62,811 nucleotides of DNA from an uncultured Acidimicrobiales bacterium (GCA_937969345.1 CALBVK010000037.1:1-62811); one strand, 5' to 3'. Shown: positions 1,703 to 36,276, counted from the first letter of the stretch. A program made the numbers and translations. The notes: generated by a model from the sequence alone, not told the origin.

Positions 1703-1792
1703 TCATCGCGCCAGCACTACTTGCGTGGCAAAAGCGACAAGGATCACTACACCGAGGACCAGGGAGGACAAGATCAGCTTTCGGGTGCTCAT
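1703..1792 (-). CDS. hypothetical 29-aa hydrophobic micro-protein (candidate)
   Basis: Not in the track (under 60 aa). ATG 1792-1790 to TGA 1705-1703 encodes MSTRKLILSSLVLGVVILVAFATQVVLAR. AGGAGA sits 7 nt upstream of the ATG, the same SD and spacing as lpd about 43 nt downstream. It has one TM-like helix. Confidence 0.35.
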   Translation of the reverse strand: MSTRKLILSSLVLGVVILVAFATQVVLAR

Positions 1793-1993: not shown

Positions 1994-3679
1994 GTGTGTC
2001 CGCCTCGCGCCCCCGATTGTTCTATGACCTCGCCCTCCGAACGCCCCACCTCGAGTTCACGAGCCCTCTCCGATGCTGCCGTCGGCGCTGTCGTCGCGTT
2101 CATTCGGGTGGTCGAGCTCTACGACCCGGCGGTCGCTCATCGCGCCGCCATTCGCGCACTCGTAGCCGACCTGATCCTCGATGCCGTCGACCCCGGCGCC
2201 GACCGATCCGAGGTTCTGGCGAGTGCAGCCCTCGCCGACATCGATCTGGTCGTTAGCAGACCAGCAGACCCAGAAGCCGCGCACGAACCAACCCGTTCGC
2301 TACTGAGCGCGACCATCGTCGGACGTGTCCCGGGGCTTCGAAACGTGGCTGGGGCCATCAGCGCACGTCGAGAGCGATGGGACGGCACAGGCGAGCCCGG
2401 AGCGCGAGTTGGCCAAGACATCCCGTTGGGCGCCCGAATTATTGCGCTCACCGACACCCTCGTCGGCAACCCCGCCGCCGGATTTGTCCCGTCGTGGGAT
2501 CATGGCCTGCGACGAGTCAGGCGGAATCGTGGCTCTTCGCTCGATCCACAGCTCTGTGACGCCGTCGCCACCTGCGACCTCGACTCGATCGATACACCGC
2601 CGATCCCCTCGGCCACAGTCCTCGATCTGCTCGAGCGTGAAACCGTTGCGGACAGTGCAACGGCGGGAACCACAACCGCAACGACGATTCGCTCGGCCGT
2701 TGCAGCAGCCGGCCACACCAACCAACTCATGGCGCTCTTCGCCGAAACCGCACAGCGCACCGTCTCGGCCGCAGAAGTCCTCATCGTTGGACTGACGAGC
2801 ACGCACCTCGAATCCGAACCGTCAGCGCGAGCAACCGATGGCCAAGAACCGCCGCTCCCCCTCGAACGACTCGATGACCTCCGAGAGTTCACGATGCAGG
2901 CCGAGCTTCGCGCCGGAGTGACGCTCAGCCGAGCGCTCGATGGTGACGACGAAGGACCGGTCCACGAAATGATCGTTCCGATCATGACGAACAGCGAAGC
3001 GTGGGGCGTCGTTGTCGCCACCCGCCGCGTCGACCAACCGCCCTTCGATGCGCACGAGCTCAGCATTCTGCGCCATATCGCTGGCGAAGCAGCGGTTGCG
3101 GTCTCCAGCACAACTCATTGGGCCGAGATGGAGCAGATGGCGCTGCGGGACCAGCTCACCGGTCTAGCCAATCGCCACGAGCTCTATCGAGTGCTCGACC
3201 AGATCTTTACTCGGCCGCCACTCGAACGAATCGATAGTGCGCTGATCATGTGCGACGTCGATGGCCTCAAAGTTATTAACGACACCCTGGGACACCACGC
3301 TGGGGATCGCCTCCTGATCGATGCGGCCGCAGCGCTTCGTGGAGCTATCCGAGATCCCGAGCGCACGACGGTGTGCCGAATCGGTGGCGACGAGTTCTGC
3401 ATGGTCATCGATGGTGGAGCGCTGCTGACGGCACATGACGTCTCGGACATGATCGAGCGTCTCTTCGCCCGATCGGCGGGCTCGGGGGCACCGCGTTCAA
3501 TCTCGTGCGGCATTGCCTTTGCCAACGACGAGATCGACAGCCGAAGTGCGTTACTGCGGGCTGCTGACGAGAACCAATACCAAACAAAGCGAGCACGCAA
3601 GGCCGAACGCGAGGAACTCGCCGCAGCCCTCGGCGAGTCGAACGTGCAACCTCACGACCGTCGAGCAATTCGCGACTGA
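1994..3679 (+). CDS. diguanylate cyclase with a degenerate HD-GYP-like N-domain, a GAF-like middle and a GGDEF C-domain
   Basis: GGDEF domain: LTGLANRHELYRVL, CDVDGLKVINDTLGHHAGDRLL, RIGGDEFCMV. The N-terminus resembles HD-GYP, but HD is replaced by AD (ALADIDLV), HHE by RRE and GYP by GEP (RRERWDGTGEPGARVGQDIPLGARIIALTD). The start codon is uncertain (alternative M at 2024). Confidence 0.8.
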   Translation: MCPPRAPDCSMTSPSERPTSSSRALSDAAVGAVVAFIRVVELYDPAVAHRAAIRALVADLILDAVDPGADRSEVLASAALADIDLVVSRPADPEAAHEPTRSLLSATIVGRVPGLRNVAGAISARRERWDGTGEPGARVGQDIPLGARIIALTDTLVGNPAAGFVPSWDHGLRRVRRNRGSSLDPQLCDAVATCDLDSIDTPPIPSATVLDLLERETVADSATAGTTTATTIRSAVAAAGHTNQLMALFAETAQRTVSAAEVLIVGLTSTHLESEPSARATDGQEPPLPLERLDDLREFTMQAELRAGVTLSRALDGDDEGPVHEMIVPIMTNSEAWGVVVATRRVDQPPFDAHELSILRHIAGEAAVAVSSTTHWAEMEQMALRDQLTGLANRHELYRVLDQIFTRPPLERIDSALIMCDVDGLKVINDTLGHHAGDRLLIDAAAALRGAIRDPERTTVCRIGGDEFCMVIDGGALLTAHDVSDMIERLFARSAGSGAPRSISCGIAFANDEIDSRSALLRAADENQYQTKRARKAEREELAAALGESNVQPHDRRAIRD

Positions 3680-3692
3680 CGGGGTAACCCAA

Positions 3693-3713
3693 CGTCGCCG
3701 ATCATCGGCGACG
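3693..3713. terminator. GC-rich hairpin between convergent genes (candidate bidirectional terminator)
   Basis: CGTCGCCGAT-C-ATCGGCGACG is a perfect 10-nt inverted repeat. It lies between the cyclase stop (3679) and the kinase-fusion stop (3718). There is no clear U-tract. Confidence 0.45.
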
Positions 3714-3717: not shown

Positions 3718-4905
3718 CTACGCAGCGGCGGCGTCGCCGGCTCCGGCTCCGCGCCGACGACCGAACAGGTTCTCCAAGGTTTGCAACGGCCCATCCCCAC
3801 CGGCATGGGCGAATTCATAGGCCGGCAATGCGTTAGCAAGGCGAATCATCGCGTCAAATGCAGGCTGTCCAACGCGGTCGAAGTCGAACGCATTCGAGAT
3901 CAACTTCTGCATGACCTCGAATGGCTCGAGCGGGCGCACCTCGGTGCTACCGCCAGCGCGAAACGTCGGAAACACGATTGCGCGGATCATGCCACCCGGT
4001 GACAAGCGACCCGGACCAACGGTGCGCGGGTCGACATCCCATGTCGCCGTAAGTCCGGCAGCTGGCGACAACTCGGGCAGGAGGTGCTGCGACCCTTCTT
4101 CGATGCAGATCGCCTTGTGAAACGGAATGGCGTGCAACGAGTCGACGCCGACAGCCACAGCCTCATCGGTCAGGTACTCGTGTCCTCGCCGGACCAGCTG
4201 GGTAACGAGCGTTGACTTTCCGGCGTTGCTCACGCCCGGGAACAACACAAGACCGTCTCCAAGGTCGGCGGCTGCTGCGTGGAAGACCACCGCGGAACGA
4301 AGCATTCGCAACGGCGCAGCGTTGCACTCGCTCAGCGCTGCACGAAGTGCTCGCGGTCGGCTGGACGTTCGAGAGACCGACCGACCATTGCTGGTCAGTT
4401 GCCAGATCCCATCTTCACAGACCATCCGCAGGCCGATGAGGTGACCGCTCCGGTCACCGCTTAGGTCGATGGTGTCATCTCGCAGTGGATCGAGGATGCG
4501 GGACAACTCGTTGCGCAGCAGCTCGTCGTCAACCTCGAGAAACAAAGGAACGCCCATCGCCCGAAACGGACCAAGATGCATCGCTGATCGATCGATTGGC
4601 CACGAGACCTCATCGACCGGGACGGGCGGCGGACGAAGGCCCACGACGTCAGGGTCGACACACAAACCAGCATCGAGGAATCGCTCCACGAGGCCGGCGA
4701 CATCATCGGCGATCTGCTCGGCATCGATGCCATAGCTATAGGCGAGCTCGGCCACCATGGCATCGACGGTTGTTGGCTCATCGGCGAGCAGCCAAACGTT
4801 CGCGGCGGTCGAGTTCAGGACGTGGAGTCGACGGTCATCGACCGACCACAACAGCAGGTCGTCGCCGATCGTGCCCCAACACACGCGCGGAGATCGTTGA
4901 ATCAT
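3718..4905 (-). CDS. PqqD-like domain fused to an HPr-kinase-related P-loop kinase domain
   Basis: The track ORF 3718..5247 overlaps the upstream gene. The internal ATG at 4905 (MIQRSPRV...) forms an ATGA start/stop overlap with that gene's stop at 4902-4904. PqqD-like segment: LHVLNSTAANVWLLADEPTTVDAMVAELAYSYGIDAEQIADDVAGLVERFLDAGL. HprK-like P-loop: FPGVSNAGKSTLVTQLVRRGHEYLTDEAV. Confidence 0.65.
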   Translation of the reverse strand: MIQRSPRVCWGTIGDDLLLWSVDDRRLHVLNSTAANVWLLADEPTTVDAMVAELAYSYGIDAEQIADDVAGLVERFLDAGLCVDPDVVGLRPPPVPVDEVSWPIDRSAMHLGPFRAMGVPLFLEVDDELLRNELSRILDPLRDDTIDLSGDRSGHLIGLRMVCEDGIWQLTSNGRSVSRTSSRPRALRAALSECNAAPLRMLRSAVVFHAAAADLGDGLVLFPGVSNAGKSTLVTQLVRRGHEYLTDEAVAVGVDSLHAIPFHKAICIEEGSQHLLPELSPAAGLTATWDVDPRTVGPGRLSPGGMIRAIVFPTFRAGGSTEVRPLEPFEVMQKLISNAFDFDRVGQPAFDAMIRLANALPAYEFAHAGGDGPLQTLENLFGRRRGAGAGDAAAA

Positions 4906-6362
4906 CGCCGTCGCTCCGGCGCCGATCGCCGGCGACTGTTTCGAACGTGTTCGGCACCAAGACCAAACGCGATGAAGAGCAAGATGAACGGCGTCACCTG
5001 CGCCCGCTGTCGGCTGAGAATACCGAAGTTGCCAATAGCGGAGAACACATAGACGAACACGGCGGTGAACGCGACCGAGTACAACAGCTGTCCGCGTTGC
5101 ACCAACTGGCCGGCGCTGTTGAACAGGCCCGGGAGGGCTCGCAACAAGAACAAGAAGATCAGCGCGCTTTCCCCTGCACTCACCAAGGAGGCGGCAGAAT
5201 CTGCTTCCCAAGGGAACGGCCGAAAGAGCACCGTCAGCGCCGCCCACGGATAATCGAGTGGATTCTGCACGCGCGCTGCGACGAACTGCGCCTCGTCCTG
5301 GGAGGTGCGTTGCTGGGCAAAGTCAAGCGCAGCGTTGACGTCGGACACACCGTCGAAGCTCTCGAGACCAAACAGCGTCGCCGAAGCGCCGGCCGTAACC
5401 ATCGACGCGACCAAAATGAGGCCGAGGAAGGTGAGGTGGGTAGCGATTCGACCACGGGTGTGATGGCGTCGGGCCAGTAGACCGACGAAGAGTCCAATGA
5501 GGAGAACCATTGCGACGTGCGGACGCACCATGCCGACCGAGAAACTCCCGAGCAGCACGAACCACAAACCGTGCCAGTGGCGGTCATACAGCTTTGCCGC
5601 ACCGAACGCTCCGAGGCCGATGCCCAGCAACGACAGGCTCTCTTTGCCGACCGAAGACGGCCAATACGCGAGCGTCGGAGAAACCATCAGCCCGATCGCC
5701 AGAACGCGAAACTGCTTTGGATTCAGCGCACGCTCGGTCGCCATCAAGAAGAAGACCTGACCAACGAACGCGATCGACGCAAAGAGGAGAAATGTCGCAA
5801 TGTACGTGGACCCGGTGGCGACGTTGACGACGCCGGTGAAATAGCGAACAGATCCGGTACCCGGGATTGCACGGCCGGTATCTACGCCGAAGTCGAAGTT
5901 GCGAAGCGCAACCGCGATACGCACCCCCTCTCGGTAGTACACCGGCGAGTCAGCTCCACCGAGAAGACGTGGAACTGCGCCGAGCATACGAAGCCCAAAG
6001 CCGGCCACGAGGATGGCGGCGGTGACATCGCCCAGTCGCGGACGAACCCAGCGGTTGATCAAGACCAACGCAATCGTGGTCAACACGGGAGCGACGACGA
6101 GGCCCGGTGTCGTGTCCGCTCGCCCGGTCAGTCCAAGAAATCCAAACGAAACAGCTGCCGCGCCCGCACTCACACCGGCCAACGTCAAGAAGCTTGAGCG
6201 AAGTGATCGATCACGACCACTGAGGCCAGCGGGGCGCGATGTTTTGGGCAGCTCGCGAGACCGTGAACCAGGGTCACGAAGATCCACCGTGCTGGCACGG
6301 CCACGCGGACCTGCCATTCGTTCACTCGGACGCGGCACGATGCGCGTCGGACCGTTGCCCAT
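4902..6362 (-). CDS. polytopic membrane protein, putative polysaccharide polymerase (Wzy-like)
   Basis: 486 aa with at least 10 hydrophobic segments after an Arg/Ser-rich N-terminus. Its ATG at 6362 is 3 nt after the BY-kinase stop. The function is inferred from topology and context only. Confidence 0.55.
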   Translation of the reverse strand: MGNGPTRIVPRPSERMAGPRGRASTVDLRDPGSRSRELPKTSRPAGLSGRDRSLRSSFLTLAGVSAGAAAVSFGFLGLTGRADTTPGLVVAPVLTTIALVLINRWVRPRLGDVTAAILVAGFGLRMLGAVPRLLGGADSPVYYREGVRIAVALRNFDFGVDTGRAIPGTGSVRYFTGVVNVATGSTYIATFLLFASIAFVGQVFFLMATERALNPKQFRVLAIGLMVSPTLAYWPSSVGKESLSLLGIGLGAFGAAKLYDRHWHGLWFVLLGSFSVGMVRPHVAMVLLIGLFVGLLARRHHTRGRIATHLTFLGLILVASMVTAGASATLFGLESFDGVSDVNAALDFAQQRTSQDEAQFVAARVQNPLDYPWAALTVLFRPFPWEADSAASLVSAGESALIFLFLLRALPGLFNSAGQLVQRGQLLYSVAFTAVFVYVFSAIGNFGILSRQRAQVTPFILLFIAFGLGAEHVRNSRRRSAPERRR

Positions 6363-6365
6363 CGT

Positions 6366-8255
6366 CTACTTCTTGGCGCCGGTCGACGACAGTTCGTTCT
6401 CGGAGTCGACGAGGTCCACAACATCATCGGAGAGGTCGATATCTGCACGACGCCGGAACCAGGAGAATCGGCCGGTTTCGACCACCGGGCGCTCTTCGTA
6501 GTAACCGCCGTAGTAGTAGTAGTCAGCGGAATGGCGAGCGTCGACATCGGTGATCGCCACGCCGAGAACATGGGCCCGGCGGCGATCGAGGATCTCCGCA
6601 GCACGATCCGCTGCGTGCATGGTCGTCTTTCCAGCGCGCATCACGAGCACGACATCGTCGACGAGGTCGAGCAGGTCTACTGCGTCATTGGTCGCGAGCA
6701 ACGGCGCGGTGTCGATCAGGATGAGGTCGTACAACTTCATCGCCTTCTTGATCACCGACCGCTGTGCCGCGATAACTTCGGTCGGGAGCGCGTCGCTGTT
6801 CTCCACCACGTTCGAGATCAATTCCACATCAGGAATCTGCGTCTTGTTGAGATCCATTGGCTGATACTCAGAGCCGGTCAAGACATGCAAACGGGGGCGC
6901 CGGAAGTCGCAATTCATCAACAGCACACGCTCGCCAGCTTCAGCCAACATCGCACCGAGGTTGGCAACGGTTGTGGTCTTGCCTTCGGAAGGACCAGGCG
7001 AGGTCACGAGCACGACCTGACCGGTCGTGCGACGGGACCTGCGGGCGTAGCTCAGCGTCGATGCGATCGCTCGATATTGCTCGGCGAACCGACTGCGCGG
7101 ATTTTCTCGCGCATGCATTTCAGCAGCACGCTTGTGTGTGCGGGCGAGAGACGGCACCTCGGCGATCACCGGCAGATCGAGCAGCGCCTCTACCTGACGC
7201 TTCGACCGAACGCGGTTGTCGAGGCGGTTGAGGACCATCGCAATGATGACTCCAGCGAGCAGACCAAGAAGTGCACCGCTCCCAACCCGCGGCAACATGC
7301 CGTTGGGAAGTCGACTACTGACGGCAGAGAGTGCACCCGTATCGGACTGCGATTCAACATCATCACCGAAGAGCGCTTCGATGTTCTGTCCAATCGATGC
7401 GTTGTCGATGAGTTCGCCAAAACGGTCCTGCGAGATAACCGCCGACTTACCAGCAGCGCTCTGCAGCGACTCGATCGGAACGATCGGCACCCCGTCAGCG
7501 CGGGCTTCGAGCACGGCTGCATTCGCGATAATTCGAGCGCTGATGAACTGCTGCTCGTCCTGCACGAGAAGGTTCTCGGTTCGTTCGTCTTCGGCGGCAC
7601 GAGCAATTCGAAGGTTGTTGCGTGTCGCTGCGAGGTTGGCCTCGGCTTCGGCGAGACGAGATTCAGCGCTAGCGATCGCGTCCGCAGCGTATTGCTCGGC
7701 CTCTGCGTTCAGGTATCGGAGCAACTCGGTTGCGTATGCGTCCGCGAGCGCTTCGGCCTGAGCCGGCGTCGTGCCGATCGCGACGAGGTCGAGCGATTCG
7801 CTATCCGACCGGATCAGGACACGAATTTGTGTGGCCGCAGCGGTCGGGGTGACGCCGACCGACTCCGCAACGGCGTTTGGAACTTCACCGATTGTGATCC
7901 GCTTGGCGAGCACGTTTAGGTTCCGAACGCCGAGGATTGCTTGGGTGTCCGGAACGTTGCTATCGAGAACGAGTACGTGCTTGGCCTGGTAATGGTCGAT
8001 GGCGACCGGAGCGGTATCCGCCTCCGTCGCAACGACGCCCGAAAGCCAACCGAGCAACCCGCCAACGGCCAAGAAGAGGACCAGCATCCGCCAACGACGA
8101 AGGATATTACGGAGCGGACCGAGCGGATCTTCGAGCACACCGGCCCCCCGATCTGCATGCGTCACAGGACCAAGGACATCCTCGGTCGCCCCATACATCT
8201 GCGTAGCGTGCGAGGATTCGTCAAGACGATCGTCGCGAACAACACGGTTTTCCAT
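6366..8255 (-). CDS. Wzz-domain / BY-family protein tyrosine kinase (Wzc-like), copy 1
   Basis: Walker A VTSPGPSEGKTTT, A' NCDFRRP, B ILIDTAP, and a C-terminal Tyr cluster DYYYYGGYYEE. The N-terminus has a TM segment and a coiled-coil chain-length-determinant region. The track start is GTG 8288; I list ATG 8255 (MENRVV, with GAGGTG upstream). Either start is possible. Confidence 0.85.
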   Translation of the reverse strand: MENRVVRDDRLDESSHATQMYGATEDVLGPVTHADRGAGVLEDPLGPLRNILRRWRMLVLFLAVGGLLGWLSGVVATEADTAPVAIDHYQAKHVLVLDSNVPDTQAILGVRNLNVLAKRITIGEVPNAVAESVGVTPTAAATQIRVLIRSDSESLDLVAIGTTPAQAEALADAYATELLRYLNAEAEQYAADAIASAESRLAEAEANLAATRNNLRIARAAEDERTENLLVQDEQQFISARIIANAAVLEARADGVPIVPIESLQSAAGKSAVISQDRFGELIDNASIGQNIEALFGDDVESQSDTGALSAVSSRLPNGMLPRVGSGALLGLLAGVIIAMVLNRLDNRVRSKRQVEALLDLPVIAEVPSLARTHKRAAEMHARENPRSRFAEQYRAIASTLSYARRSRRTTGQVVLVTSPGPSEGKTTTVANLGAMLAEAGERVLLMNCDFRRPRLHVLTGSEYQPMDLNKTQIPDVELISNVVENSDALPTEVIAAQRSVIKKAMKLYDLILIDTAPLLATNDAVDLLDLVDDVVLVMRAGKTTMHAADRAAEILDRRRAHVLGVAITDVDARHSADYYYYGGYYEERPVVETGRFSWFRRRADIDLSDDVVDLVDSENELSSTGAKK

Positions 8256-8361
8256 GGCTTTGTGTACACCTCGATTAACCCGCTGCACGACAGGTGTGCA
8301 GAGGTTCTCCGTTCAATCGGCCAAATAGCAAGATTCGTAAGTCAAACGGCCCCCCTTTCCC

Positions 8362-9513
8362 ATGAGCCATACACCCCACACCACATCCGAGGCCACGAAC
8401 AGCCCACATCGCGAGACGTTGCGCGTGGTTCACCTAATCAAGGGGCTTGGGCCCGGCGGGGCGGAGCGACTTATCGTCAATCAGCTCGAAACCGCTGATC
8501 CTGACATCGACTACACCGTCCTTCGGCTCGTGGGTCACAAGAACCACCTCGTCGCCGCTGTCGAGGCAGCGGGAGCAACGAGCCATCTAATCGGCGGTGG
8601 CCGGTTTTGGCCGTTTGCGCTTCGCAAGAAACTCACCGCGATCGCTCCAGACGTGATTCACGTCCACTCCCCTGTTCTGGCCATCGCCGCCCGAGCCCTG
8701 GTCACCATGACCGCACTCGACGCGGCCGTCTTGACGACAGAACACAACCGCTGGCCACGACACCATTGGCTTACCCGCTTCGGCAATCGGCTTACCGCAG
8801 CCCGCGATACCGCACGGATCGCCGTGTCCGAGGACGTCCGCCAATCGATGAGCGCATCGCTGCACTCCACCACCGACGTTCTCGATCATGGCGTTCCGCT
8901 CGCTCCGCTGATCGGGCTCCGCACGAAACGACCCGAGATGCGCGCCCGGCTCCTTGGAGATTCGGCGGATTCGTCGATCATCATCGGCATCGTCGCAAAC
9001 TTTCGCCCGGAAAAGGCCTACGACGTATTTCTCGACGCGGCGGACCAGCTCAACGAGCGGCGCTCCGACGTCCGGTTCTTCGTCGTTGGCCAAGGTCCCG
9101 GCGAAGCGGCGTTCCGTAACGCCGTCCGCGAACGCGGACTCGAGTCTGTTGTCGAGGTGCTCGGTTATCGTGACGACGCGACCGAGGTGATGAGTGCGTT
9201 CGATATTTTTACGCTCACCTCACGCCACGAAGGCAAGCCGGTTTCGCTCATGGAAGCATTCGCCCTCGGAATTCCTGTGGTGGCGACCCGAGCAGGTGGC
9301 ATACCCGAAGCGGTTCTCGACGGGACGAACGGCATTCTCGTCGACATCGATGACGCTCCCGCCGTCAGTAGAGCGTGGGAACAACTCGCCGCAGATACCG
9401 AACTTCGATCGCAAATGGGTCAGGCAGCTGCGGTCGCAGCCGCCGGCTTCGATGCCTCGGTCGCAACCAAGTCGATCGAAGCGGTGTACCGCTCTATCGC
9501 CGGACGCGGTTGA
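8362..9513 (+). CDS. glycosyltransferase, GT-B fold (GT4-like)
   Basis: N-terminus VVHLIKGLGPGGAERL. C-terminus TSRHEGKPVSLMEAFALGIPVVATRAGGIPEAV (the EX7E region). Confidence 0.85.
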   Translation: MSHTPHTTSEATNSPHRETLRVVHLIKGLGPGGAERLIVNQLETADPDIDYTVLRLVGHKNHLVAAVEAAGATSHLIGGGRFWPFALRKKLTAIAPDVIHVHSPVLAIAARALVTMTALDAAVLTTEHNRWPRHHWLTRFGNRLTAARDTARIAVSEDVRQSMSASLHSTTDVLDHGVPLAPLIGLRTKRPEMRARLLGDSADSSIIIGIVANFRPEKAYDVFLDAADQLNERRSDVRFFVVGQGPGEAAFRNAVRERGLESVVEVLGYRDDATEVMSAFDIFTLTSRHEGKPVSLMEAFALGIPVVATRAGGIPEAVLDGTNGILVDIDDAPAVSRAWEQLAADTELRSQMGQAAAVAAAGFDASVATKSIEAVYRSIAGRG

Positions 9514-10685
9514 GCAATACCTGCATCGTCGAGCAAAGAACGGTACAGGCCCAAGGTTCGGGCAATCACGCGCTCTTGATCAAACTCGGCGGCCGCACGT
9601 GCACGAGCAGCCCGACCCATCGAGTTCCGTTTCGCCGGGTCGTCGATCAGCGTTCGGATCGCCGAAGCCAACGCGATGGGAGATCGCGGTTCGACGAGCA
9701 AACCCGTCGTGCCATGATCGACGACTTGACGGCATCCGCGGACGTCGGTCGATACCACCGGCACGCCCATTGCGCTCGCTTCCATAGCTGCGCGTGGAAA
9801 TCCCTCTCGATGTGATGGCAAGACAAAGATGTCGAAGAGCGCGAGCATCACGTCCACGTCGGTTCGTGAGCCGAGGAAATGCACACCTCGCTCAGCCATT
9901 GCATCGATCGTTTCTTGGTCGACGGCACCGGCCTTGCCCGGCTCGGTCGGTCCAACGACGATGATCGCGATATCGAGATCGTCACAAAGCAGCCGCTCGA
10001 CAGCCTCGAAGAACTCTCGATAGCCCTTCTCCCATACCAAACGACCGACCATTCCTACGACGGTCGTGCTCGGAGCGATGCCCAGCTTGCGGCGCCGAGC
10101 TCGAGCCATTCGACTCTTGGACGCCGACGGAGCGAACCGATCGAGGTCAATGCCGTTGCCGAGGAGGTGAACCCGTTCGGCGGGGACACCCAACGAGCGC
10201 AGAAGCTCCACGTCTTCGACGTTCTGGACCAGTTCGCCTTGGCTGCATGCCGCCGCAAGTCGTTCGGCACCGTACACAACAGCGCGTTTGGCAACAGGAT
10301 CGGTCGGCTGAGCGAACAGGCCGTGCACCGTGTTCACCACGATCGGCACCTGGCACCGTCGCGCGAGCATTCGGCCGAGCACTCCGGGCTTGGGGTTGTG
10401 GGTGTGCACGATGTCGGGTCGTACCTTCTCGAACACCGCTCGCAGTTCGGACCATGCGTGCCGATCCGAGCGAAGGTCCATCGAACGCGACAGCGATGGG
10501 ATGGCGATGTGGCGATGTCCACGTTCGAGAATTGCGTCGACGTGGGGTCCAGGAGCAGACACCGTGGTGAGCGCATAACCCGCCGCGGCGAAGGCATCGA
10601 GTTGTGGGCCGAGCAGCCAGTCGAGGCTGATCGCCGTGGTCGTGAGGTGAAGCAGCCGTGGCGGCCGGTACGACAGGTCGGTCAC
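9420..10685 (-). CDS. glycosyltransferase, GT-B fold (GT4-like)
   Basis: PSHREGFPRAAMEASAMGVPVVSTDVRGCRQVV. The GTG start forms a GTGA overlap with the upstream deacetylase stop. About 35 aa of non-conserved C-terminal tail overlaps the convergent gene. Confidence 0.85.
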   Translation of the reverse strand: MTDLSYRPPRLLHLTTTAISLDWLLGPQLDAFAAAGYALTTVSAPGPHVDAILERGHRHIAIPSLSRSMDLRSDRHAWSELRAVFEKVRPDIVHTHNPKPGVLGRMLARRCQVPIVVNTVHGLFAQPTDPVAKRAVVYGAERLAAACSQGELVQNVEDVELLRSLGVPAERVHLLGNGIDLDRFAPSASKSRMARARRRKLGIAPSTTVVGMVGRLVWEKGYREFFEAVERLLCDDLDIAIIVVGPTEPGKAGAVDQETIDAMAERGVHFLGSRTDVDVMLALFDIFVLPSHREGFPRAAMEASAMGVPVVSTDVRGCRQVVDHGTTGLLVEPRSPIALASAIRTLIDDPAKRNSMGRAARARAAAEFDQERVIARTLGLYRSLLDDAGIAQPRPAIERYTASIDLVATEASKPAAATAAA

Positions 10686-11521
10686 GATGCTTTACCTCGA
10701 TATCGGGCGACGTTAATCACCCGTCGAATGTCATCCTCGGTTCGCATACCGCCGTTCACCTTCCGACTAAAGCCCTCCCAGCCGTCAGCGTTCTGGATGG
10801 GCGAGCGATACAACCGAAACAGGTCGGTTGCCCCGGGAACATTGGATCGAGTTCCCGCGACCGCTGCACTGCGGTAGCGCGCACGCACGAGCGCTTCGAT
10901 ATCGACCCGAGCCGGGACGGCTTTCGGATATGCGAAGTGCCGCGGCGTCATGCCGAGCTCGTCCTCGATTCGCTCATTGCAGCGGTCGAGCTCTTCGGTG
11001 GCAACAGCGACCGAACAGCGATCGAGCAAGACGTGGTTGTGCGTATGGGCACCGATCGTCACCAGACCGGTCGACAATGCATCGCGCAAACCAGCCCAGG
11101 AAACCGGACGCCCGTTGGCCGGGTAGCTCTTTCGGGAATCGACGAATCCAGTCGACAGGTAAAGCGTCGCTGGAAGCTGAAACTCGAGCAGGATGGGCAG
11201 CGCGACGTCGACGAAGTCTGCCGTGCCGTCATCAACGGTCAGTGCCACCGAGTTCGTTGTGGTCATACCCGACTCAAGATTGTCGACGACCGTATCGAGC
11301 GCTTCGACACACATCGCAGCGCGCAGGTGAGCCATTTGTCGGCGAAACAGCTCCGTTGGCAGATCCACTGGGCTTACGGTGCGAGCTCCAACTCGGTGAT
11401 ACGCCAGAACAACAGCCCCGTTGGGCGATGGACGGACACTGTCAACAACCAATGCGAGACGCTTTGCAGCGCGACGCCCGGTCGAGATCGACGAGGTCGT
11501 TGTTGTGGCGGTGGTCCCCAT
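10682..11521 (-). CDS. polysaccharide deacetylase (NodB homology domain)
   Basis: LTVDDGTADFVDVALPILLEFQLPATLYLSTGFV and GAHTHNHVLLD are NodB-type motifs. Confidence 0.8.
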   Translation of the reverse strand: MGTTATTTTSSISTGRRAAKRLALVVDSVRPSPNGAVVLAYHRVGARTVSPVDLPTELFRRQMAHLRAAMCVEALDTVVDNLESGMTTTNSVALTVDDGTADFVDVALPILLEFQLPATLYLSTGFVDSRKSYPANGRPVSWAGLRDALSTGLVTIGAHTHNHVLLDRCSVAVATEELDRCNERIEDELGMTPRHFAYPKAVPARVDIEALVRARYRSAAVAGTRSNVPGATDLFRLYRSPIQNADGWEGFSRKVNGGMRTEDDIRRVINVARYRGKAS

Positions 11522-12527
11522 GAAAGAGCTAGTCGGCGACCGGTTCCCAAAGCTGAGCCATATGACTCACTACGATCTCGCCATGACCTTGGACAACGTC
11601 GACATACGCGCCGCCACGGGCGCTGACATCGAGGAGATCATCAACGTGTGCAGCTCGGCGCTTGGTTGGGCCGATCCCGAATTCGATGAAGCATTGTTTC
11701 GATGGAAACACCTCGACAATGCATTTGGGCATTCGGCACTTCTCGTCGCTGTCGAAGCTGGCGAGATCTTGGCTGTTCGTCCGTTTATGCGTTGGCGCTT
11801 CGCCAGTGAAACCGAAACGCTCTCCGCAGCCCGAGCTGTCGATACCGCGACCCGGCCCGACGCACAGGGGCGCGGGCTCTTCCGAGCGCTCACTGAAGCC
11901 GGAGTTTCCCAACTCCGCTCCGAGGACGTCGGCTTCATCTTCAATACACCCAACGCCAAAAGCCTCCCCGGGTATCTGAAGATGGGTTGGGAGCAGGCCG
12001 GCTCGGTTCCGCTCGGCTACAAAATGCGTTCCCCGCAAGCCGCAGGCCGAATGCTCAAGAGCAGGACAGCGGCCAACAAACCCTCCATCCCCACGCCCAA
12101 GCTTGGGCAATCGGTCGCCGAGGGCATCGCCGGCCTCGAACCTGGGCTGCTCGTCTCACGCGATGAGTTCCTCCGCACCGACCACACGTTCGAGACGCTG
12201 CTGTGGCGATACAGCTCAGGCCCAATCGAGTACCGCTTTGTACCAGGCCCGCATACGACCGGAGCAGTGGTGCGCCTTCGCCAACGCGGCCCAAGCCGAG
12301 AGCTGGTCGTAGCTGAGTTGCTGGGCACCCCGAGTATCGACGATGCCCGCACCATTGTTCGCGACACGCTGGCCGAGACCGACGCCGACTACTGCATTTG
12401 TACAGCGGGAGTTCGCCGCACCATCAGCATTGAACGACTTGGCCCCAAACTGGCCATTCGTGAGATAACACGCGCGCCGAAGCCCGACTCGCTGCACTGG
12501 CAACCTGGCGATATCGAACTCTTCTAG
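11520..12527 (+). CDS. GNAT-family acetyltransferase
   Basis: IRAATGADIEEIINV ... LLVAVEAGEILAVRPFMRW ... TRPDAQGRGLFRALTEAG (acetyl-CoA binding Q/RxxGxG/A). The start is uncertain. ATG 11520 would overlap the divergent gene's ATG head-to-head; alternatives are ATG 11562 and 11583. Confidence 0.6.
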   Translation: MKELVGDRFPKLSHMTHYDLAMTLDNVDIRAATGADIEEIINVCSSALGWADPEFDEALFRWKHLDNAFGHSALLVAVEAGEILAVRPFMRWRFASETETLSAARAVDTATRPDAQGRGLFRALTEAGVSQLRSEDVGFIFNTPNAKSLPGYLKMGWEQAGSVPLGYKMRSPQAAGRMLKSRTAANKPSIPTPKLGQSVAEGIAGLEPGLLVSRDEFLRTDHTFETLLWRYSSGPIEYRFVPGPHTTGAVVRLRQRGPSRELVVAELLGTPSIDDARTIVRDTLAETDADYCICTAGVRRTISIERLGPKLAIREITRAPKPDSLHWQPGDIELF

Positions 12528-18194: not shown

Positions 18195-18916
18195 CGTCAG
18201 TTCGAACCAACCGTCCTCGTCGTCCAGAACCCGACGTCCCCGAAATAACGATCGTCCAAGCGCAGCGACAGCGTGTTCGACAGGTCGTTGTTCTCGGAGC
18301 CGGCGGGCACGGCAGGGAACTCGCCGACATCATCCGCGATGTCGCCCAGCAATCCAGCGACGTCAGTCTCCTCGGCGTAATCGACGACAACGAACCCGAC
18401 CGAGTACTTCTCGCCCGGTCTGGAATGCGATTTCTTGGCGGTCGTGCGGCGCTCGACGGACGAGACGTCGACCTCCATATCGGTGTTGGCTATCCCCACA
18501 TCCGCAGAGCGATTGACGAAACGCTCCAACGGCCTGCGGACGCAATCATTCACCCGAGCGCTCTGGTTGGTTCCACCGTTTCGCTCGGAACCGGGGCCGT
18601 GCTCGCGCAGAACGTGATCGTCACAACCAACGTGACCATTGGACGCCACAGCCACGTCAACATCGGCGCGTCGATCTCGCACGACTGTCACCTTGGCGAC
18701 TACGTGACGGTTTGCCCGCACGCAACCATCACAGGCGCTGCACAGATCGGCGATGAAGTATTCATCGGAGCCGGTGCCACACTTCTTCCCGGAGTAACCA
18801 TTGGCGACCGGGCCGTCATTGGAGCTGGTGCGGTCGTGTCGGTCGATGTCGCCCCAGATACGACAGTCGCTGGCGTGCCGGCGCGTCAGATCAACAGTTC
18901 TGACCGATCCCGCTGA
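18191..18916 (+). CDS. NeuD/PglD-family sugar N-acetyltransferase (hexapeptide left-handed beta-helix)
   Basis: VVVLGAGGHGRELADII N-domain plus C-terminal hexapeptide repeats (IGDEVFIGAGATLLPGVTIGDRAVIGAGAVV). ATGA overlap with the upstream gene. Confidence 0.8.
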   Translation: MTSVRTNRPRRPEPDVPEITIVQAQRQRVRQVVVLGAGGHGRELADIIRDVAQQSSDVSLLGVIDDNEPDRVLLARSGMRFLGGRAALDGRDVDLHIGVGYPHIRRAIDETLQRPADAIIHPSALVGSTVSLGTGAVLAQNVIVTTNVTIGRHSHVNIGASISHDCHLGDYVTVCPHATITGAAQIGDEVFIGAGATLLPGVTIGDRAVIGAGAVVSVDVAPDTTVAGVPARQINSSDRSR

Positions 18917-20286
18917 ACAAAACGTCCGTGTCCAGGGCGACCGACAAACGTCCGCTCGTCGATCACGAACGATCCCCGACACAAGACACTGCGCACCTGA
19001 CCGGTCACCTCAACGCCCTCCCAGGCCGAGTTGTCGATCTGCATATGGTGCGATGCCGCCCCGAGCGTATGACCAACGGTTGGATCGTAGATCACGACAT
19101 CTGCGTCTGAACCAGGAGCGAGCACGCCCTTCCGGGGATACATCCCAAACATCCGAGCCGGCGTGGTCGAACAGGTCTCGACCCATCGGGCCAAGCTGAG
19201 CTCGCCGGCAACAACACCTTGATGAATGAGGTCCATCCGGTGCTCGATTGATCCCAGACCGTTTGGAACCCCGGTGAAATCCTCGCCGAGCAACTTCTCG
19301 TTGTCACAAAACGGACAGTGGTCGGTTGCCACCACAGCCAAATCATCGTTGCGCAACCCTGCCCACAGGCTCGACTGCCCGTCGCTCGGTCGAAGCGGCG
19401 GGGAGCAGATGTGTCGGCGGCCCGAAATGCCCGGTTGGTCGAGATGCTCCTCGATCGAAAGATACAGGTACTGCGGGCACGTCTCCGCAAAGATGTTCTG
19501 ACCGCTTCGACGAGCGATCGACACCTGCTCGAGGGCCTCGGCAGACGAAAGGTGCACGATGTACAGCGGCGCTTCAGCCACCGAAGCAAGCGCAGCCGCT
19601 CGATGAACTGCCTCAGCTTCGAGACGAGCCGGACGGGTTCTTCCGTGCCATACCGGGTCGGTCTTTCCCGCCGCCACTGCACGAGCGCGCAAGACATCGA
19701 TCGCCAAACCGTTCTCAGCGTGCATCATCACCATGGCGCCGAGGTCGGCGGCTCGGTACATCGCAGAGATCAGCTGGCCATCATCGCTGTACCACGCACC
19801 CGGATAGGCCATGAAGTACTTAAAGCTCGTGATGCCCTCGTCCATAACGGCGCTCATCTCACGTAACGACTCGTCATCCACCTGGCCCATCGCGAGATGG
19901 AATGCATAGTCGATGGCGCACTGGCCGTCGGCTTCGCTGTGGCGGGTTTCGACAGCGTCGCGAACATGCATGCCGCTGAGCTGCCCAGCAAAGTCCACAA
20001 CGGTCGTCGTTCCGCCCCACGCCGCAGCCGCGGTCCCGGTTGCGAAGGTGTCAGACGACGTGGCCTCAGGTGTCATTTCGAGTTGCAGATGCACGTGCGA
20101 ATCAACACCGCCGGGAAGCACATAACACCCCAACGCATCGACGACCCGTTCGGCCGACTCCTGAGCGCGAACGGAAACATCGCTCCCCGGCGATACCAGG
20201 GCAACGATCTTTTCTCCCTCGATGAGCACGTCGGCGGGAGTTGCCCCCGATGACGACACGACTTGGCCACCCGTTATGACGAACAT
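18886..20286 (-). CDS. dihydropyrimidinase / D-hydantoinase (cyclic amidohydrolase)
   Basis: Start at the internal ATG 20286 (MFVITGGQVV). Motifs: GGVDSHVHLQ, SFKYFMAYPG (carboxylated Lys), MHAENG, TDHCPF. It lies 13 nt downstream of the CapD-like gene and has a 31-nt tail overlap with the convergent acetyltransferase. Confidence 0.85.
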   Translation of the reverse strand: MFVITGGQVVSSSGATPADVLIEGEKIVALVSPGSDVSVRAQESAERVVDALGCYVLPGGVDSHVHLQLEMTPEATSSDTFATGTAAAAWGGTTTVVDFAGQLSGMHVRDAVETRHSEADGQCAIDYAFHLAMGQVDDESLREMSAVMDEGITSFKYFMAYPGAWYSDDGQLISAMYRAADLGAMVMMHAENGLAIDVLRARAVAAGKTDPVWHGRTRPARLEAEAVHRAAALASVAEAPLYIVHLSSAEALEQVSIARRSGQNIFAETCPQYLYLSIEEHLDQPGISGRRHICSPPLRPSDGQSSLWAGLRNDDLAVVATDHCPFCDNEKLLGEDFTGVPNGLGSIEHRMDLIHQGVVAGELSLARWVETCSTTPARMFGMYPRKGVLAPGSDADVVIYDPTVGHTLGAASHHMQIDNSAWEGVEVTGQVRSVLCRGSFVIDERTFVGRPGHGRFVQRDRSELLI

Positions 20287-22268: not shown

Positions 22269-24719
22269 ATGCCTCATGTCTGCTTGTTCACCGCCGATAG
22301 GGCGAACGGACTAGTTATGAGTATCGACCTACGAGACCAGCTGCGCATCGACGAGGATCCCCAACAGATCCCCGAGATCCTTGACGCCACGCCCCAGCAC
22401 TCCCCAGCGCGTGCTCGCCGTGACCACCAACGTGCAACCGTGTCGCTCATCATTGTTTCGGCGATCCTCTGCATGTTGTTCTCCACGGCCTCACCTGCCG
22501 GCATCGACGTTGCTGACGCGTTGTATCGCGGTGCGTTCGGGGCGCTCGTCGTCTGGGCGGCGTCGCGTTCTCGCCGCTGGACCTGGGCGCTCATCACCGG
22601 GGTCGCGGCCGTCGCTGCTGCCAGCCTGCTCACGCAGCTTCTGGCGATCGCCGGTGTCGCTGTCGCAGCGAACGCCCTACGCACGAGACGGCGCCACCAC
22701 CTCGCCGGCGCCTGTGTTGCGGCCCTATCGATGCCCGCACTACTTACCCAAGGGGCCGGGCCGGTATGGCGCCTTTCGGGCGGCACCTTCGACGACCCAT
22801 TTGCGATGAGCGCAATCATCACGCTCATCGCGACCGCTCCGGTGATCCGTTCCGGGTGGAGAACCTTGTCACGTCGCAAACGCCGACAGATCCGGACTCG
22901 TACTCGGCGGCTCGGTTACGTCATCGGCGGTGTTCTGGCCGCCAGCCTCGCGGTTTGTGCAGCCGCGGTGCCCGCCATGGTCGATGGGCTCAACGAACTC
23001 CGCCGGGCTACAGAGTCGGCCCAAGCGGGCGACTTCGATCAGGCATCGACGCGGTTCGATACCGCTGCTGCGGACTGGGAGCGAGCGAACACGATCGTCT
23101 CTGGCCCCTGGATGGTGCCGGCCCGCCTCGTACCGGTCCTGGGCCAGCACGTTCGCGCAGCTCAGGTCGTCAGCGGGCAATCGAGTGCACTGAGCTCTTC
23201 AGCGGCCGTAGCCACGCGTCGGGTCGACCCCGACTTACTCATCATTGACGGGGCGATCAACCTTGACGAGATCGGCGAAATCACACCGGCCGTCGATGCA
23301 TTCGCCGCTACGGTCGACCGCGCTGCCGAACGCATTGGACAGACCCCCTCGCCGTGGCTCCTCCCTCCCGTCGCAGACCGCGTCGATCGCTCACTCGAAT
23401 TGCTCGTACCAGCCTCTGGCGTCCTGAACGCAGCGGCCGAAGGGCTCCATGTGGGAGCAGAGCTCCTTGGACACTCGCGACCGGCGAACACGCTGGTCAT
23501 GTTCTCGACGCCAGCCGAAGCTCGTGGAACCGGCGGTTTCGTCGGCAACTGGGCCGTGGTCAGCGGCAACGACGGACGAATCGAGATCGCCGCGCAATAT
23601 CGCACCCGGGAGCTCAATCTGCTCCTCGAAGAAAACCGAGCCGAACTTCGCGCCGACGCGGAATACGAAGCTCGATACGGCCGGTTCGCCGTCGAACGCC
23701 ACATTCAGGACGTCACGCTCAGCCCCGACTTCCCATCCGTCGCCCCGGTCGCAGCGGACCTCTTCACCCAAGCCACGGGTGTCGAGATCGACGCCGTGTT
23801 GCTGGTCGACCCGTTCGTGATCGAGAAGCTGCTGCAATTCAGCGGACCGCTCGATCGTGGCGACGGCACGATGTTGACTGGCGCAAATGCAGCGAACGAA
23901 TTGCTCGTCGAACAATACGAACGCTTCGGCGACGACGAATCGGGCCGAGAAGCCGAGCTGCGTGAGTTGACGACCCTCCTGGTCTCGACGCTGCTCGACA
24001 CTCCCCCGGATCCCATCGCCTTCGCGACAGAACTCGCACCACTCGCCGATCAGGACCGCGTCTCGCTCTGGTTGGCCAACGATGCCGACGGCTCGATCGC
24101 CTCACGCCTCGGCCTCGACGGGGCCTTCCCGACATCGAGTGGCGACCTACTGTCGGTGGTCCATCAAAACGCCGGGCAAAACAAAATCGACAGCTTCCTC
24201 GAACGCGACATCGCCATCACGACACGGTTGGATCCCAAGGGCAGCATCGTCGAGCATGACGTCACTATCACCCTCGACAACACCGCGCCGAACAGTGGCC
24301 TGTCGCCAGCGATCCTGGCCTCCAACGACCAGGGCTTGCAGAACGGCACCAACCGAATGGTGCTCTCGGTGTACACCGCCTTGCCCATCACGACAGCGCG
24401 AATCGACGGCGCCGAACTTCCGCTCCAGGCAGAGACCGAGTTTGGCCACTCGGTCTATTCGGCGGTCATCGCAATCCCCGCGAGCGACTTCGTCACCGTC
24501 GAGCTCCAGCTGGCAGGACCTGTCGACCTGGCGAACGGCTACGACGTCACCCTCGGCGCACAACCGACCGTTATCGCCGATGACGTGTCGTGGCACGTGA
24601 TGACGACGACGGGCGACAAGGTCCTAGCGCCGAGCGACTGGGCGAGCAGCAGGGACGGCGCTCGCTGGTCCGCAGTGCTCGACCGAGACAAAACACTCCA
24701 CTTCGACCTCGAGGACTAA
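22269..24719 (+). CDS. DUF4012-like membrane/extracellular protein
   Basis: N-terminal TM region, then FSTPAEARGTGGFVGNWAVVSGNDGRIEI, which I recognise as typical of the DUF4012 family found in actinobacterial glycan loci. Confidence 0.65.
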   Translation: MPHVCLFTADRANGLVMSIDLRDQLRIDEDPQQIPEILDATPQHSPARARRDHQRATVSLIIVSAILCMLFSTASPAGIDVADALYRGAFGALVVWAASRSRRWTWALITGVAAVAAASLLTQLLAIAGVAVAANALRTRRRHHLAGACVAALSMPALLTQGAGPVWRLSGGTFDDPFAMSAIITLIATAPVIRSGWRTLSRRKRRQIRTRTRRLGYVIGGVLAASLAVCAAAVPAMVDGLNELRRATESAQAGDFDQASTRFDTAAADWERANTIVSGPWMVPARLVPVLGQHVRAAQVVSGQSSALSSSAAVATRRVDPDLLIIDGAINLDEIGEITPAVDAFAATVDRAAERIGQTPSPWLLPPVADRVDRSLELLVPASGVLNAAAEGLHVGAELLGHSRPANTLVMFSTPAEARGTGGFVGNWAVVSGNDGRIEIAAQYRTRELNLLLEENRAELRADAEYEARYGRFAVERHIQDVTLSPDFPSVAPVAADLFTQATGVEIDAVLLVDPFVIEKLLQFSGPLDRGDGTMLTGANAANELLVEQYERFGDDESGREAELRELTTLLVSTLLDTPPDPIAFATELAPLADQDRVSLWLANDADGSIASRLGLDGAFPTSSGDLLSVVHQNAGQNKIDSFLERDIAITTRLDPKGSIVEHDVTITLDNTAPNSGLSPAILASNDQGLQNGTNRMVLSVYTALPITTARIDGAELPLQAETEFGHSVYSAVIAIPASDFVTVELQLAGPVDLANGYDVTLGAQPTVIADDVSWHVMTTTGDKVLAPSDWASSRDGARWSAVLDRDKTLHFDLED

Positions 24720-24777: not shown

Positions 24778-25389
24778 GTGGAACAGTCCAAACGCGCCTT
24801 TCGACGCCTGAGCACCATCAGCATCGTGCTGCTGCTCGTGATGTCGGCCTTGGGCAGCCCAGCGGGCGCCCAATACGGCGGCGTCTCGGGACTGTTCGTG
24901 ACCTCGTCACCGACCCGTCCCGGCATTGCGGACTTCTCCGGTCTCGGCTGTCAAGGAGGCGAAGAAGTCGTCCTTTACTTTCCGGGACTGCAGCCAACGA
25001 ACACCGATCCCGCTGCGACCCAAACCGTCCCCGGCCGCATCCTTGCAGTGACGACCGCTGTCTCGAGCCCCGATGCGCTTATCAACGGGACGTTCTCGTT
25101 CTCGAACGTGGTGCTTCCAACCGACGTCGAACCCGGCGTGTACGAGATCCACGCTCGCTGCGGCACCCTCGATCTTCGAGTTCTGATCCAGATCAACGGC
25201 GACGGTGAAATTACGATCGATACGGACCCGAACGCACCGATCATCAATGCGACCAACGAAGAAGGCATACCAAGTGCGTTGCCCTTCACCGGCAGCGACT
25301 CGAATCGCATCGTGTCTATGGGTGCGGGTCTGATCGCTGCAGGCATTGCGTTCTTGGCGTTGTCGCGGCGACGCAACGCCACGGCCTGA
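24778..25389 (+). CDS. secreted protein with an LPXTG-type (LPFTG) cell-wall sorting signal
   Basis: GTG start with AAGGA 5 nt upstream. Signal peptide RRLSTISIVLLLVMSALGSPAGAQ. C-terminus LPFTGSDS plus a hydrophobic stretch and RRRN. Confidence 0.75.
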   Translation: MEQSKRAFRRLSTISIVLLLVMSALGSPAGAQYGGVSGLFVTSSPTRPGIADFSGLGCQGGEEVVLYFPGLQPTNTDPAATQTVPGRILAVTTAVSSPDALINGTFSFSNVVLPTDVEPGVYEIHARCGTLDLRVLIQINGDGEITIDTDPNAPIINATNEEGIPSALPFTGSDSNRIVSMGAGLIAAGIAFLALSRRRNATA

Positions 25390-34855: not shown

Positions 34856-34861
34856 GCCGCA

Positions 34862-36193: not shown

Positions 36194-36202
36194 TTCGGTA
36201 AG

Positions 36203-36217
36203 TACGGCCTTTTGGCC
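36203..36217 (+). promoter_or_regulatory. recurrent upstream motif TACGGCCTTTTGGCC (site 4 of 6)
   Basis: Lies 74 nt upstream of TTG 36277 and 10 nt after the ligase-like gene stop. GGCC-TTTT-GGCC is also self-complementary. Confidence 0.25.
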
Positions 36218-36276
36218 CTCAAGAGATCAGCGAATCCGTCGATCATTTCGTCATCAAACCGAAACATTTCATTCTC

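Follow-up and report, generated by a model that had tools for sequence, protein, structure and literature searches.

The 62,811-nt stretch of DNA considered here (the window) comes from an uncultured Acidimicrobiales bacterium (GCA_937969345.1 CALBVK010000037.1:1-62811) and carries, on its minus strand at 4905-3718, a gene for a 395-aa protein in which a PqqD-type domain (an RRE) is joined to an HprK-like kinase. This fusion is one conserved polypeptide, consisting of a lasso-B1-type RRE/PqqD domain, a small middle domain, and a P-loop kinase domain of the HPrK/PEPCK fold, and its gene closes a translationally coupled operon, behind those for a bacterial tyrosine (BY) kinase and a membrane protein of GT-C-like fold. 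On the strength of its motifs and its predicted structure, the fusion is very probably an active P-loop kinase that carries a peptide-binding module. RRE/PqqD domains are treated as markers of peptide natural-product pathways; here one is fused to a kinase within polysaccharide operons, and no such pathway is apparent nearby. The reading developed below, to which a probability of roughly 0.4 is assigned, is that an RRE-docked cytoplasmic Ser kinase acts on a partner from its own operon and so would tune the assembly or export of a polymer.

The N-terminal domain (aa 1-82, nt 4660-4905, minus strand) is delimited by Pfam and by an AlphaFold2 (AF2) model. Pfam PqqD (PF05402) matches aa 23-81 at E 1.7e-11 and 44.7 bits, exceeding the gathering score of 23.4, and the best PqqD subfamily models are those of NCBIfam for lasso peptides (E 1e-5), with no HPr-rel-A PqqD model among the matches listed at E <= 0.01. 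The AF2 model of the fusion, built on 21 homologues, shows three folded parts (pLDDT 89, pTM 0.86; RRE domain pLDDT >89) and no transmembrane (TM) helix. Its RRE domain has the lasso B1-type fold, a winged helix with a three-stranded sheet, and in a Foldseek search of the PDB it matches the lasso B1 protein TbiB1 with its leader peptide (5v1u/5v1v) at target-normalized TM-scores (TMt) of 0.81-0.83 and a root-mean-square deviation of 1.7-1.9. In lasso B1 proteins, as in the TbiB1-leader complex, the bound peptide pairs with an edge strand, beta3. The corresponding strand of the fusion, D-R-R-L-H-V-L-N (aa 24-31, nt 4813-4836, minus strand), is conserved more strongly than any other part of the RRE; R25, H28, L30, and N31 are near-invariant or invariant in a 21-sequence alignment (A1), and the pattern R-x-H-x-L-N recurs in distant fused members.

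Beyond a variable linker (aa 83-107; 15% mean pairwise identity), the minus-strand gene continues into an alpha/beta middle domain (aa 108-200, nt 4306-4584) and the kinase domain (aa 201-383, nt 3757-4305), both defined on the AF2 model. The best NCBIfam match is TIGR04352, HprK_rel_A, over aa 204-380 (E 9.5e-22, 77.4 bits). Within the protein, conservation is highest in the kinase core and lowest in the linker. In Foldseek searches, the C-terminal domain matches HPrK/P (probability 1.0, TMt 0.42-0.56), and the middle and C-terminal domains together match ATP-dependent PEPCK over ~330 columns; HPrK/P and PEPCK share one fold. The active site of HPrK/P comprises a His, a GxSGxGKSE loop, and an RGHxLVADD motif, and the motifs of the fusion are colinear with these, its P-loop G-V-S-N-A-G-K-S-T (aa 224-232, nt 4210-4236, minus strand) being flanked by His209 and Asp247 (RGHEYLTDEA). 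His209, G224-x-S-x-x-G-K-S-T232, and Asp247 are invariant both in A1 and in a distant set (A2), and it is because these catalytic residues are invariant and colinear with the HPrK/P pattern that the fusion is read as an active kinase. The original prediction had recognized a PqqD-like N-terminus and an HPr-kinase-type P-loop near the C-terminus from two short stretches, LHVLNSTAANVW... and FPGVSNAGKSTLVTQLVRRGHEYLTDEAV; both stretches are found in the fusion, and the family and fold matches bear out both assignments.

All three genes of the operon are read from the minus strand: the BY kinase gene (Wzc-like, 640 aa; 8288-6366, stop codon 6368-6366), the membrane protein gene (486 aa; 6362-4902, ATG at 6362, TGA at 4904-4902), and the fusion gene (ATG at 4905-4903). 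Only 3 nt separate the Wzc-like stop from the next ATG, and the TGA of the membrane protein gene overlaps the start of the fusion gene within an ATGA; re-reading of the sequence upheld this tight packing and the translational coupling that had been claimed from it. The same 4-nt overlap recurs in three related loci (L004, L023, and L040). GGAG lies 8 nt 5' of the fusion ATG, and the start is placed at 4905 because the homologues share its M-I-Q-R-S-P N-terminus, which also rules out an upstream GTG at 5247. Intergenic distances in the operon are 38, -4, 3, and 73 nt, and there is therefore no space for a separate precursor open reading frame (ORF). A GC-rich hairpin at 3693-3713 lies where the fusion gene (stop at 3718) and a GGDEF gene (stop at 3679) converge, and is likely a bidirectional terminator marking the end of the operon; the 61-nt stretch that contains it folds at -30.3 kcal/mol (z = -3.15 relative to shuffles), and within the operon no terminator-like site was found above chance.

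Homologues of the fusion are numerous. A word-index search returned 32 of full length (389-421 aa), and the same single ORF of 380-430 aa recurs in independent metagenome-assembled genomes (MAGs) and metagenomes down to ~25-30% identity, which together exclude a frameshift or assembly artefact. A profile search over 1.84 billion representatives yielded 1662 matches at E <= 1e-30, and about 120 of the best 150 run in a single stretch from PqqD through the kinase in proteins of 380-450 aa. A word-index search with the diverse alignment A2 recovered 5 proteins only, a metagenome scan with a further alignment (A3) gave 12 loci, mostly short, and a plasmid collection yielded just two weak, unfused relatives and hence no cultured host of the fusion. 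Public names of the relatives are limited to "PqqD family protein", "PqqD family peptide modification chaperone", "HprK-related kinase A", and "PqqD family protein of HPr-rel-A system". Permuted fusions with the kinase ahead of PqqD are seen in P0072, P0123, and P0137, while P0148 is a 702-aa Bac_transf-PqqD-kinase protein whose N-terminal 220 residues correspond to genes annotated as "sugar transferase". A triple fusion of this kind (702 aa) lies at 10001-12109 of locus L021, which has three PqqD-kinase genes within 12 kb. In the more distantly related L018, an Acidimicrobiia MAG, NTP_transf_5 takes the place of PqqD as the fusion partner of the kinase (8627-10546), and two tandem, free-standing PqqD genes follow (10540-10907 and 10904-11182), and in L038 a 739-aa protein joins NTP_transf_5 to a GT4 glycosyltransferase (4747-6966). 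The union of the two modules in one polypeptide, which had been singled out as unusual, is thus real, as a conserved single ORF, but is not unusual, since it belongs to a large family that includes permuted and triple fusions.

The partners of the fusion fared differently. The 640-aa protein possesses Walker A (GPSEGKTT, nt 6972-6995), Walker A' (LLMNCDFRRP, nt 6894-6923), and Walker B (LILIDTAP, nt 6702-6725) motifs and a Tyr cluster (YYYYGGYY, nt 6498-6521), all read directly on the minus strand. Its match to TIGR01007 (E 1.2e-25, 90 bits) is below the 108-bit cut-off and its match to Wzc PRK11519 (E 2e-19) is below the curated one; Pfam Wzz does not match it, and the window's two other BY kinases do have Wzz. 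Judged by its motifs, it is a BY-type tyrosine autokinase/co-polymerase, as had been proposed. The companion label of "Wzy-like" for the 486-aa membrane protein had to be dropped. Neither Pfam (to E 0.5), with Wzy_C included, nor NCBIfam matches it, none of its at least 109 homologue clusters has a Pfam domain, and hhalign comparison of the family with the window's Wzy_C protein (34862-36193) and that of L021 gave probabilities of 0.4% and 0.2%; a PDB sequence profile search and a plasmid tblastn search also returned nothing. Its AF2 model (pLDDT 89.4, pTM 0.87) is confident except for residues 1-45, and the best Foldseek matches are PglB (6gxc; E 2.8e-3, query-normalized TM-score [TMq] 0.45), STT3, ALG9, AglB, ArnT, and Pmt4. 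These GT-C matches have a probability of 1.0 but are weak by E (3e-3 to 0.2; TMq 0.37-0.47), and WaaL reaches a probability of 0.33 and a TM-score of 0.25 only. A distant family member, P0275, matches PMT_2 at E 8.7e-5, just below threshold. GT-C enzymes have an external catalytic acid, a role that the position of Asp138 fits; this residue lies in the loop after the third TM helix and is invariant in 56 sequences. According to its model, the 486-aa protein is of a GT-C-like fold and not demonstrably a Wzy, and it may be the functional polymerase of the locus, since the locus has no recognizable Wzy_C or Wzx.

Synteny links the fusion to both partners. The order Wzc, membrane protein, fusion, and convergent HD_5-GAF-GGDEF gene is kept in more than 20 Acidimicrobiia loci, among them L001-L016, L023, and L040 (the closest, L006, being from an uncultured Acidimicrobiales MAG), and synteny with a Wzc-type BY kinase was seen in each related locus compared. 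By itself, this conserved order could reflect vertical inheritance, as the adjoining lpdA is also syntenic. More distant loci hold the same modules in other arrangements. For example, L018 has Wzc, membrane protein, NTP_transf_5-kinase, PqqD, and PqqD; L041 has Wzc, PqqD, NTP_transf_5, membrane protein, DegT, and a ScmC-like kinase; and L038 has PqqD, the NTP_transf_5-GT4 fusion, GNAT, membrane protein, DegT, a ScmC-like kinase, and PqqD, with no Wzc call. In L021, an operon of Wzy_C, Wzc, PqqD, NTP_transf_5, and GT4 genes faces the Bac_transf-PqqD-kinase gene and is accompanied by two more PqqD-kinase fusions, and L029 and L031 combine these modules in further ways. The recurrence of the same modules in differing orders in distant loci supports a functional link of the PqqD-kinase with Wzc and the membrane protein. 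NTP_transf_5 is found in the related loci L018, L021, L029, L031, L038, L039, and L041, and the window's clade is the fused variant without it.

It is tempting to suggest how such a link might work. The fusion would serve as a cytoplasmic, ATP-dependent Ser kinase that docks, by way of its RRE, on a short peptide motif in one of the other operon proteins. The best docking candidate is R-x-x-P-R-P-S-E-R in the N-terminal tail of the membrane protein, whose Ser would be the likely acceptor, and a second is D-I-D-L in the tail of the Wzc-like protein, past the Tyr cluster. Phosphorylation could then tune polymer assembly or export, beside tyrosine autophosphorylation of Wzc and the adjoining cyclic di-GMP (c-di-GMP) enzyme; in related loci the PqqD and kinase pair would work with the NTP_transf_5 nucleotidyltransferase that is absent from the window's clade. 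A second phosphorylation layer on the polymerase/co-polymerase machinery, as put forward in the original prediction, is the best reading of the locus, with PRPSER as its candidate target. Both tails and the soluble fusion are expected from topology to be cytoplasmic, the N-tail because it is rich in Arg and stands ahead of TM helix 1 in a GT-C-like protein (the positive-inside rule).

The candidate site in the membrane protein, R-I-V-P-R-P-S-E-R (aa 7-15, nt 6318-6344, minus strand), is near-invariant and lies in a disordered N-tail (pLDDT ~50), for which MGNGPTRIVPRPSERMAGPRGRASTVDLRD is the candidate peptide and Ser13 the candidate acceptor. Across the family it takes the form R-[VAI]-[IV]-P-R-P-S-[EQ]-R at residues ~8-25 and is followed by a hypervariable stretch rich in Arg, Ser, and Pro. 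PRPSxR is present in 59 of 72 close homologue clusters and a relaxed form in 64, and six of the eight clusters lacking the motif look like N-truncated gene calls. The motif is found in every locus in which the N-terminus of the membrane protein is on the contig and a fused kinase follows, including L023, where the called start had missed it, and the distant, high-GC L027 has it in the variant form RRPPSDR. Two of three look-ups went as predicted: P0258, with the motif, has a fused kinase adjoining, and P0268, a family member without the N-tail, has none; P0272, also without the N-tail, has an unfused PqqD/kinase/NTP_transf_5 triad. In L037, a member lacking the N-tail is accompanied by Wzc and by no PqqD or kinase. 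A rule that the motif occurs wherever PqqD and kinase do was rejected on L041 and L038, and the motif tracks the fused type without NTP_transf_5 rather than the module in general, as P0272, a tail-less protein beside an unfused triad, indicates. In the Wzc-like protein, A-D-I-D-L (aa 615-619, nt 6432-6446, minus strand) is the candidate docking peptide; [DE]-[IV]-[DN]-L stands at the same place in the Wzc tails of L001-L014 and L040, and the rest of the acidic tail is variable. A second, weaker motif in the N-tail of the membrane protein, T-V-D-L-R-D (nt 6273-6290, minus strand), is of the x-[IVL]-D-L-x-[DE] type, as is ADIDLSDD in the Wzc C-tail (6432-6446, minus strand); in other orthologues the position of TVDLRD reads D-L-V-I-I-D-D or similar.

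The operon opens an exopolysaccharide (EPS) locus that extends from 3718 to ~25400 and encodes GT4, GT1, and GT2 glycosyltransferases, a deacetylase, GNAT, an epimerase, Bac_transf, a CapD-like dehydratase, and DUF4012, with no recognizable Wzx flippase and no Wzy_C or Wzz Pfam domain. The DUF4012 protein is encoded at 22269-24719, and DUF4012 also stands beside related systems in L018 and L039; two ORFs of the locus (18197-18982 and 24778-25389) belong to no family. Convergent with the operon is the gene for an HD_5-GAF-GGDEF protein of the diguanylate cyclase type (1994-3679, plus strand; Pfam GGDEF E 2e-29, with HD_5 and GAF), a neighbour in all loci of the clade. A second, canonical Wzx/Wzy-type polysaccharide locus is found at 33206-49827, with a Wzz-domain BY kinase (33206-34855), Wzy_C (34862-36193), Wzx/Polysacc_synt (42327-43583), WecG (47488-48255), another Wzz-domain BY kinase (48286-49827), two beta-helix proteins, and glycosyltransferases, and with no PqqD or HprK-like gene. 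Further along, an 888-aa protein with HD_5 (HD-GYP-like) and lamin-tail domains (54169-56835, plus strand) is followed by a PPK2 polyphosphate kinase (56875-57690, plus strand).

The absence of lasso-type machinery from the surroundings, claimed at the outset for precursor ORF, cyclase, and protease, was upheld by the operon gaps and by Pfam scans that covered 48 of the window's 50 ORFs (all but 28218-28505 and 36371-36772). No Asn-synthase-type cyclase, transglutaminase-type protease, or NTP_transf_5 was detected in these 48 ORFs, a tblastn search of the window with two NTP_transf_5 proteins was likewise negative, and neither a lasso precursor nor an exporter was found in its 62.8 kb, the operon being without a free small ORF. 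Directly upstream of lpdA, a hydrophobic, TM-like ORF of 29 aa (MSTRKLILSSLVLGVVILVAFATQVVLAR; 1703-1792, minus strand) has an AGGAGA Shine-Dalgarno sequence. More than 15 related loci have it in this position, with 55-100% identity, and in only two of them is it called as a gene. As a precursor or substrate it was rejected, being TM-like, separated by the GGDEF gene, devoid of a C-terminal Ser, and absent from L018.

A number of observations weigh against an operon partner as the substrate of the kinase. The precedent for the reading comes from lasso pathways, where HPr-kinase homologues phosphorylate the C-terminal Ser of precursor peptides (PMC8498205), in agreement with the phosphorylation of lasso precursors cited in the original prediction; that Ser, however, belongs to a free peptide and is not an internal Ser of a membrane protein. 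The TIGR04352 match of 77.4 bits falls below the 200-bit curated cut-off of an equivalog model and covers only positions 95-280 of 280, and Pfam Hpr_kinase_C (PF07475) is sub-threshold (20 bits relative to a gathering score of 33.3, E 5e-4, 46 residues). The fusion is also the fastest-evolving gene of the region, at 81% identity to L006 compared with 91-99% for Wzc, membrane protein, GGDEF, and LpdA, and at 40-50% compared with 50-89% in the other loci of L001-L016. The N-tail cannot be the universal target of the module, because L041 and L038 have unfused PqqD, kinase, and NTP_transf_5 beside family members without it; in L018 the motif is without Ser (PRPGRV), and a proline-rich, repeated N-tail, PRPGRVPQPRRGVPQPRVPDPRVP, replaces PRPSER. 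The correlation of motif and kinase is confounded by phylogeny, with one syntenic clade carrying both, and the basic beta3 strand of the RRE (RR-H) suits the acidic D-I-D-L of Wzc better than the basic PRPSER. A broader version, in which the RRE has been recruited to regulation and tethers a lasso-type Ser kinase to the tail of either the GT-C-like protein or the BY kinase, with Ser-phosphoglycosylation in the NTP_transf_5 sister loci, is tentative and on balance doubtful.

A less likely alternative is that the substrate of the kinase is a sugar, an intermediate carried on a lipid, or the polymer, with PqqD as an adaptor to the assembly machinery only, which would yield a phosphorylated polysaccharide or, in related loci, a phosphate handle that NTP_transf_5 glycosylates. 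The module consistently lies among glycosyltransferases and is itself fused to glycan enzymes (Bac_transf-PqqD-kinase; NTP_transf_5-GT4 in L038), and the whole-protein fold match is PEPCK, a small-molecule kinase; such a role would find a parallel in pseudomycoidin, where an NTP_transf_5-type enzyme adds hexoses onto the phosphate (PMC8498205). The RRE fold and conserved beta3 edge strand nevertheless favour peptide binding, and the repeated, independent fusion of kinase and PqqD, together with the tandem PqqD genes of L018, is hard to explain by scaffolding alone. All characterized relatives, HPrK/P and the lasso kinases alike, phosphorylate a protein or peptide Ser. An improbable reading is that a free ribosomal peptide, whose gene lies elsewhere in the genome, is bound by the RRE and phosphorylated by the kinase in the manner of a cryptic pathway for peptides that are made by the ribosome and then modified post-translationally (RiPPs), the polysaccharide locus being a mere neighbour. 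The closest characterized systems are indeed lasso B1 proteins and lasso kinases, and the lasso PqqD models are the best subfamily match, but the missing precursor, cyclase, protease, and exporter speak against it, as does the association with Wzc and the membrane protein, which persists across fused, unfused, and permuted forms, including the Bac_transf fusion; the only conserved small ORF nearby is the TM-like one tied to lpdA and absent from L018. We give still less credence to phosphoglycosyl priming, in which a carrier or tail Ser would be phosphorylated and then glycosylated through the phosphate to give a phosphodiester-linked glycan-protein. Although PqqD, HprK-like kinase, and NTP_transf_5 in related loci make up the phosphoglycosylating set of pseudomycoidin, and a GT-C-like protein resembling an oligosaccharyltransferase adjoins the fusion, the window and its whole clade lack NTP_transf_5, and GT-C enzymes act on the outer face of the membrane while the kinase would be cytoplasmic. 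To our knowledge there is no bacterial precedent for such a linkage, which counts against it as well. Finally, with an artefact of assembly or frameshift already refuted by the same single ORF in independent MAGs and metagenomes, a decaying pseudo-enzyme can be dismissed almost entirely; rapid evolution and the poorly conserved linker would suit one, but the catalytic residues are invariant and the three-domain model is confident.

If the kinase is in fact docked on a protein tail, RRE biology would take in protein regulation as well as RiPP leaders, caution would be due where genome mining counts an RRE as a sign of a RiPP cluster, and the orphan HPr-rel-A/NTP_transf_5 module would gain its first function. 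Capsule and EPS assembly would likewise acquire a Ser-phosphorylation control point, beside the inputs of the Tyr autokinase and c-di-GMP. The PqqD-kinase module occurs widely, in uncultured Actinomycetota as well as in other bacteria, and the adjoining membrane family, with no Pfam domain and a GT-C-like fold, is a candidate new class of polymerase or transferase for loci without Wzy and Wzx. The target hypothesis is new, and the conserved PRPSER motif makes the docking idea directly testable with peptides.

With respect to known systems, the assembly locus in which the fusion is embedded resembles the Wzx/Wzy-dependent type in its Wzc-type kinase with Walker A, A', and B motifs and Tyr cluster, its Bac_transf initiating transferase, and its many glycosyltransferases, and differs in lacking Wzy_C, Wzx, and Wzz Pfam domains and in its GT-C-like membrane partner. 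The fusion itself shares the P-loop kinase fold and the colinear His, GxSxxGKS, and RGHxxxD(D/E) elements with HPrK/P and PEPCK-like proteins, but has no HPr or phosphotransferase system context and carries other N-terminal domains than HPrK/P. With the lasso tailoring set (TbiB1; the kinases PadeK, ThcoK, and PsmK; and PsmN) it has in common an RRE fold and an HPrK-like kinase, and the NTP_transf_5 family (cf. PsmN) occurs in related loci; it departs from that set in its fusion of RRE with kinase, in its setting of polysaccharide assembly, and in that precursor, B2 protease, C cyclase, and exporter are missing from the window. Within the library searched, the PqqD-kinase module is treated in no paper outside lasso peptides. 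ScmC, the SynChlorMet cassette protein (PF27840), which we take to be another HprK-like family from a peptide-modification cassette, has faint or weak precomputed matches to several relatives, as well as to the unfused kinases of L038 and L041, whereas in the Pfam copy used it does not match the window's fusion, which also has no radical SAM/SPASM partners.

The nearest known counterpart is the HPr-rel-A system of TIGR04352, PqqD, and NTP_transf_5, which has been catalogued by NCBI/TIGRFAMs and is uncharacterized; the PqqD member is presumably TIGR04353, "HPr-rel-A system PqqD family peptide chaperone". That cassettes of this type have been catalogued, as the original prediction had stated, is confirmed by an unfused one annotated in RefSeq. 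In Sphingomonas NZ_CP155749, a hypothetical gene is followed by those for the "HPr-rel-A system PqqD family peptide chaperone", "HprK-related kinase A", and a nucleotidyltransferase (NTP_transf_5), and the fusion keeps this order of PqqD, then kinase. A profile of the fusion family matches the annotated Sphingomonas HprK-related kinase A in hhalign (probability 99.4, E 2e-21, 30% identity) and, more weakly, the HPr-rel-A PqqD protein (probability 61, E 8e-5), and one fused relative is called "PqqD family protein of HPr-rel-A system" by JGI. The fusion is distinct in being one polypeptide with its own middle domain, which cannot be aligned with the N-terminal third of the kinase model, in lacking an NTP_transf_5 partner in the window, in its host, which belongs to the Acidimicrobiia rather than the Proteobacteria, and in its place within a Wzc operon. 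Taken as a whole, its parts are of known families, and the fusion is closest to the "HprK-related kinase A" family, as a fused variant of a catalogued but uncharacterized system.

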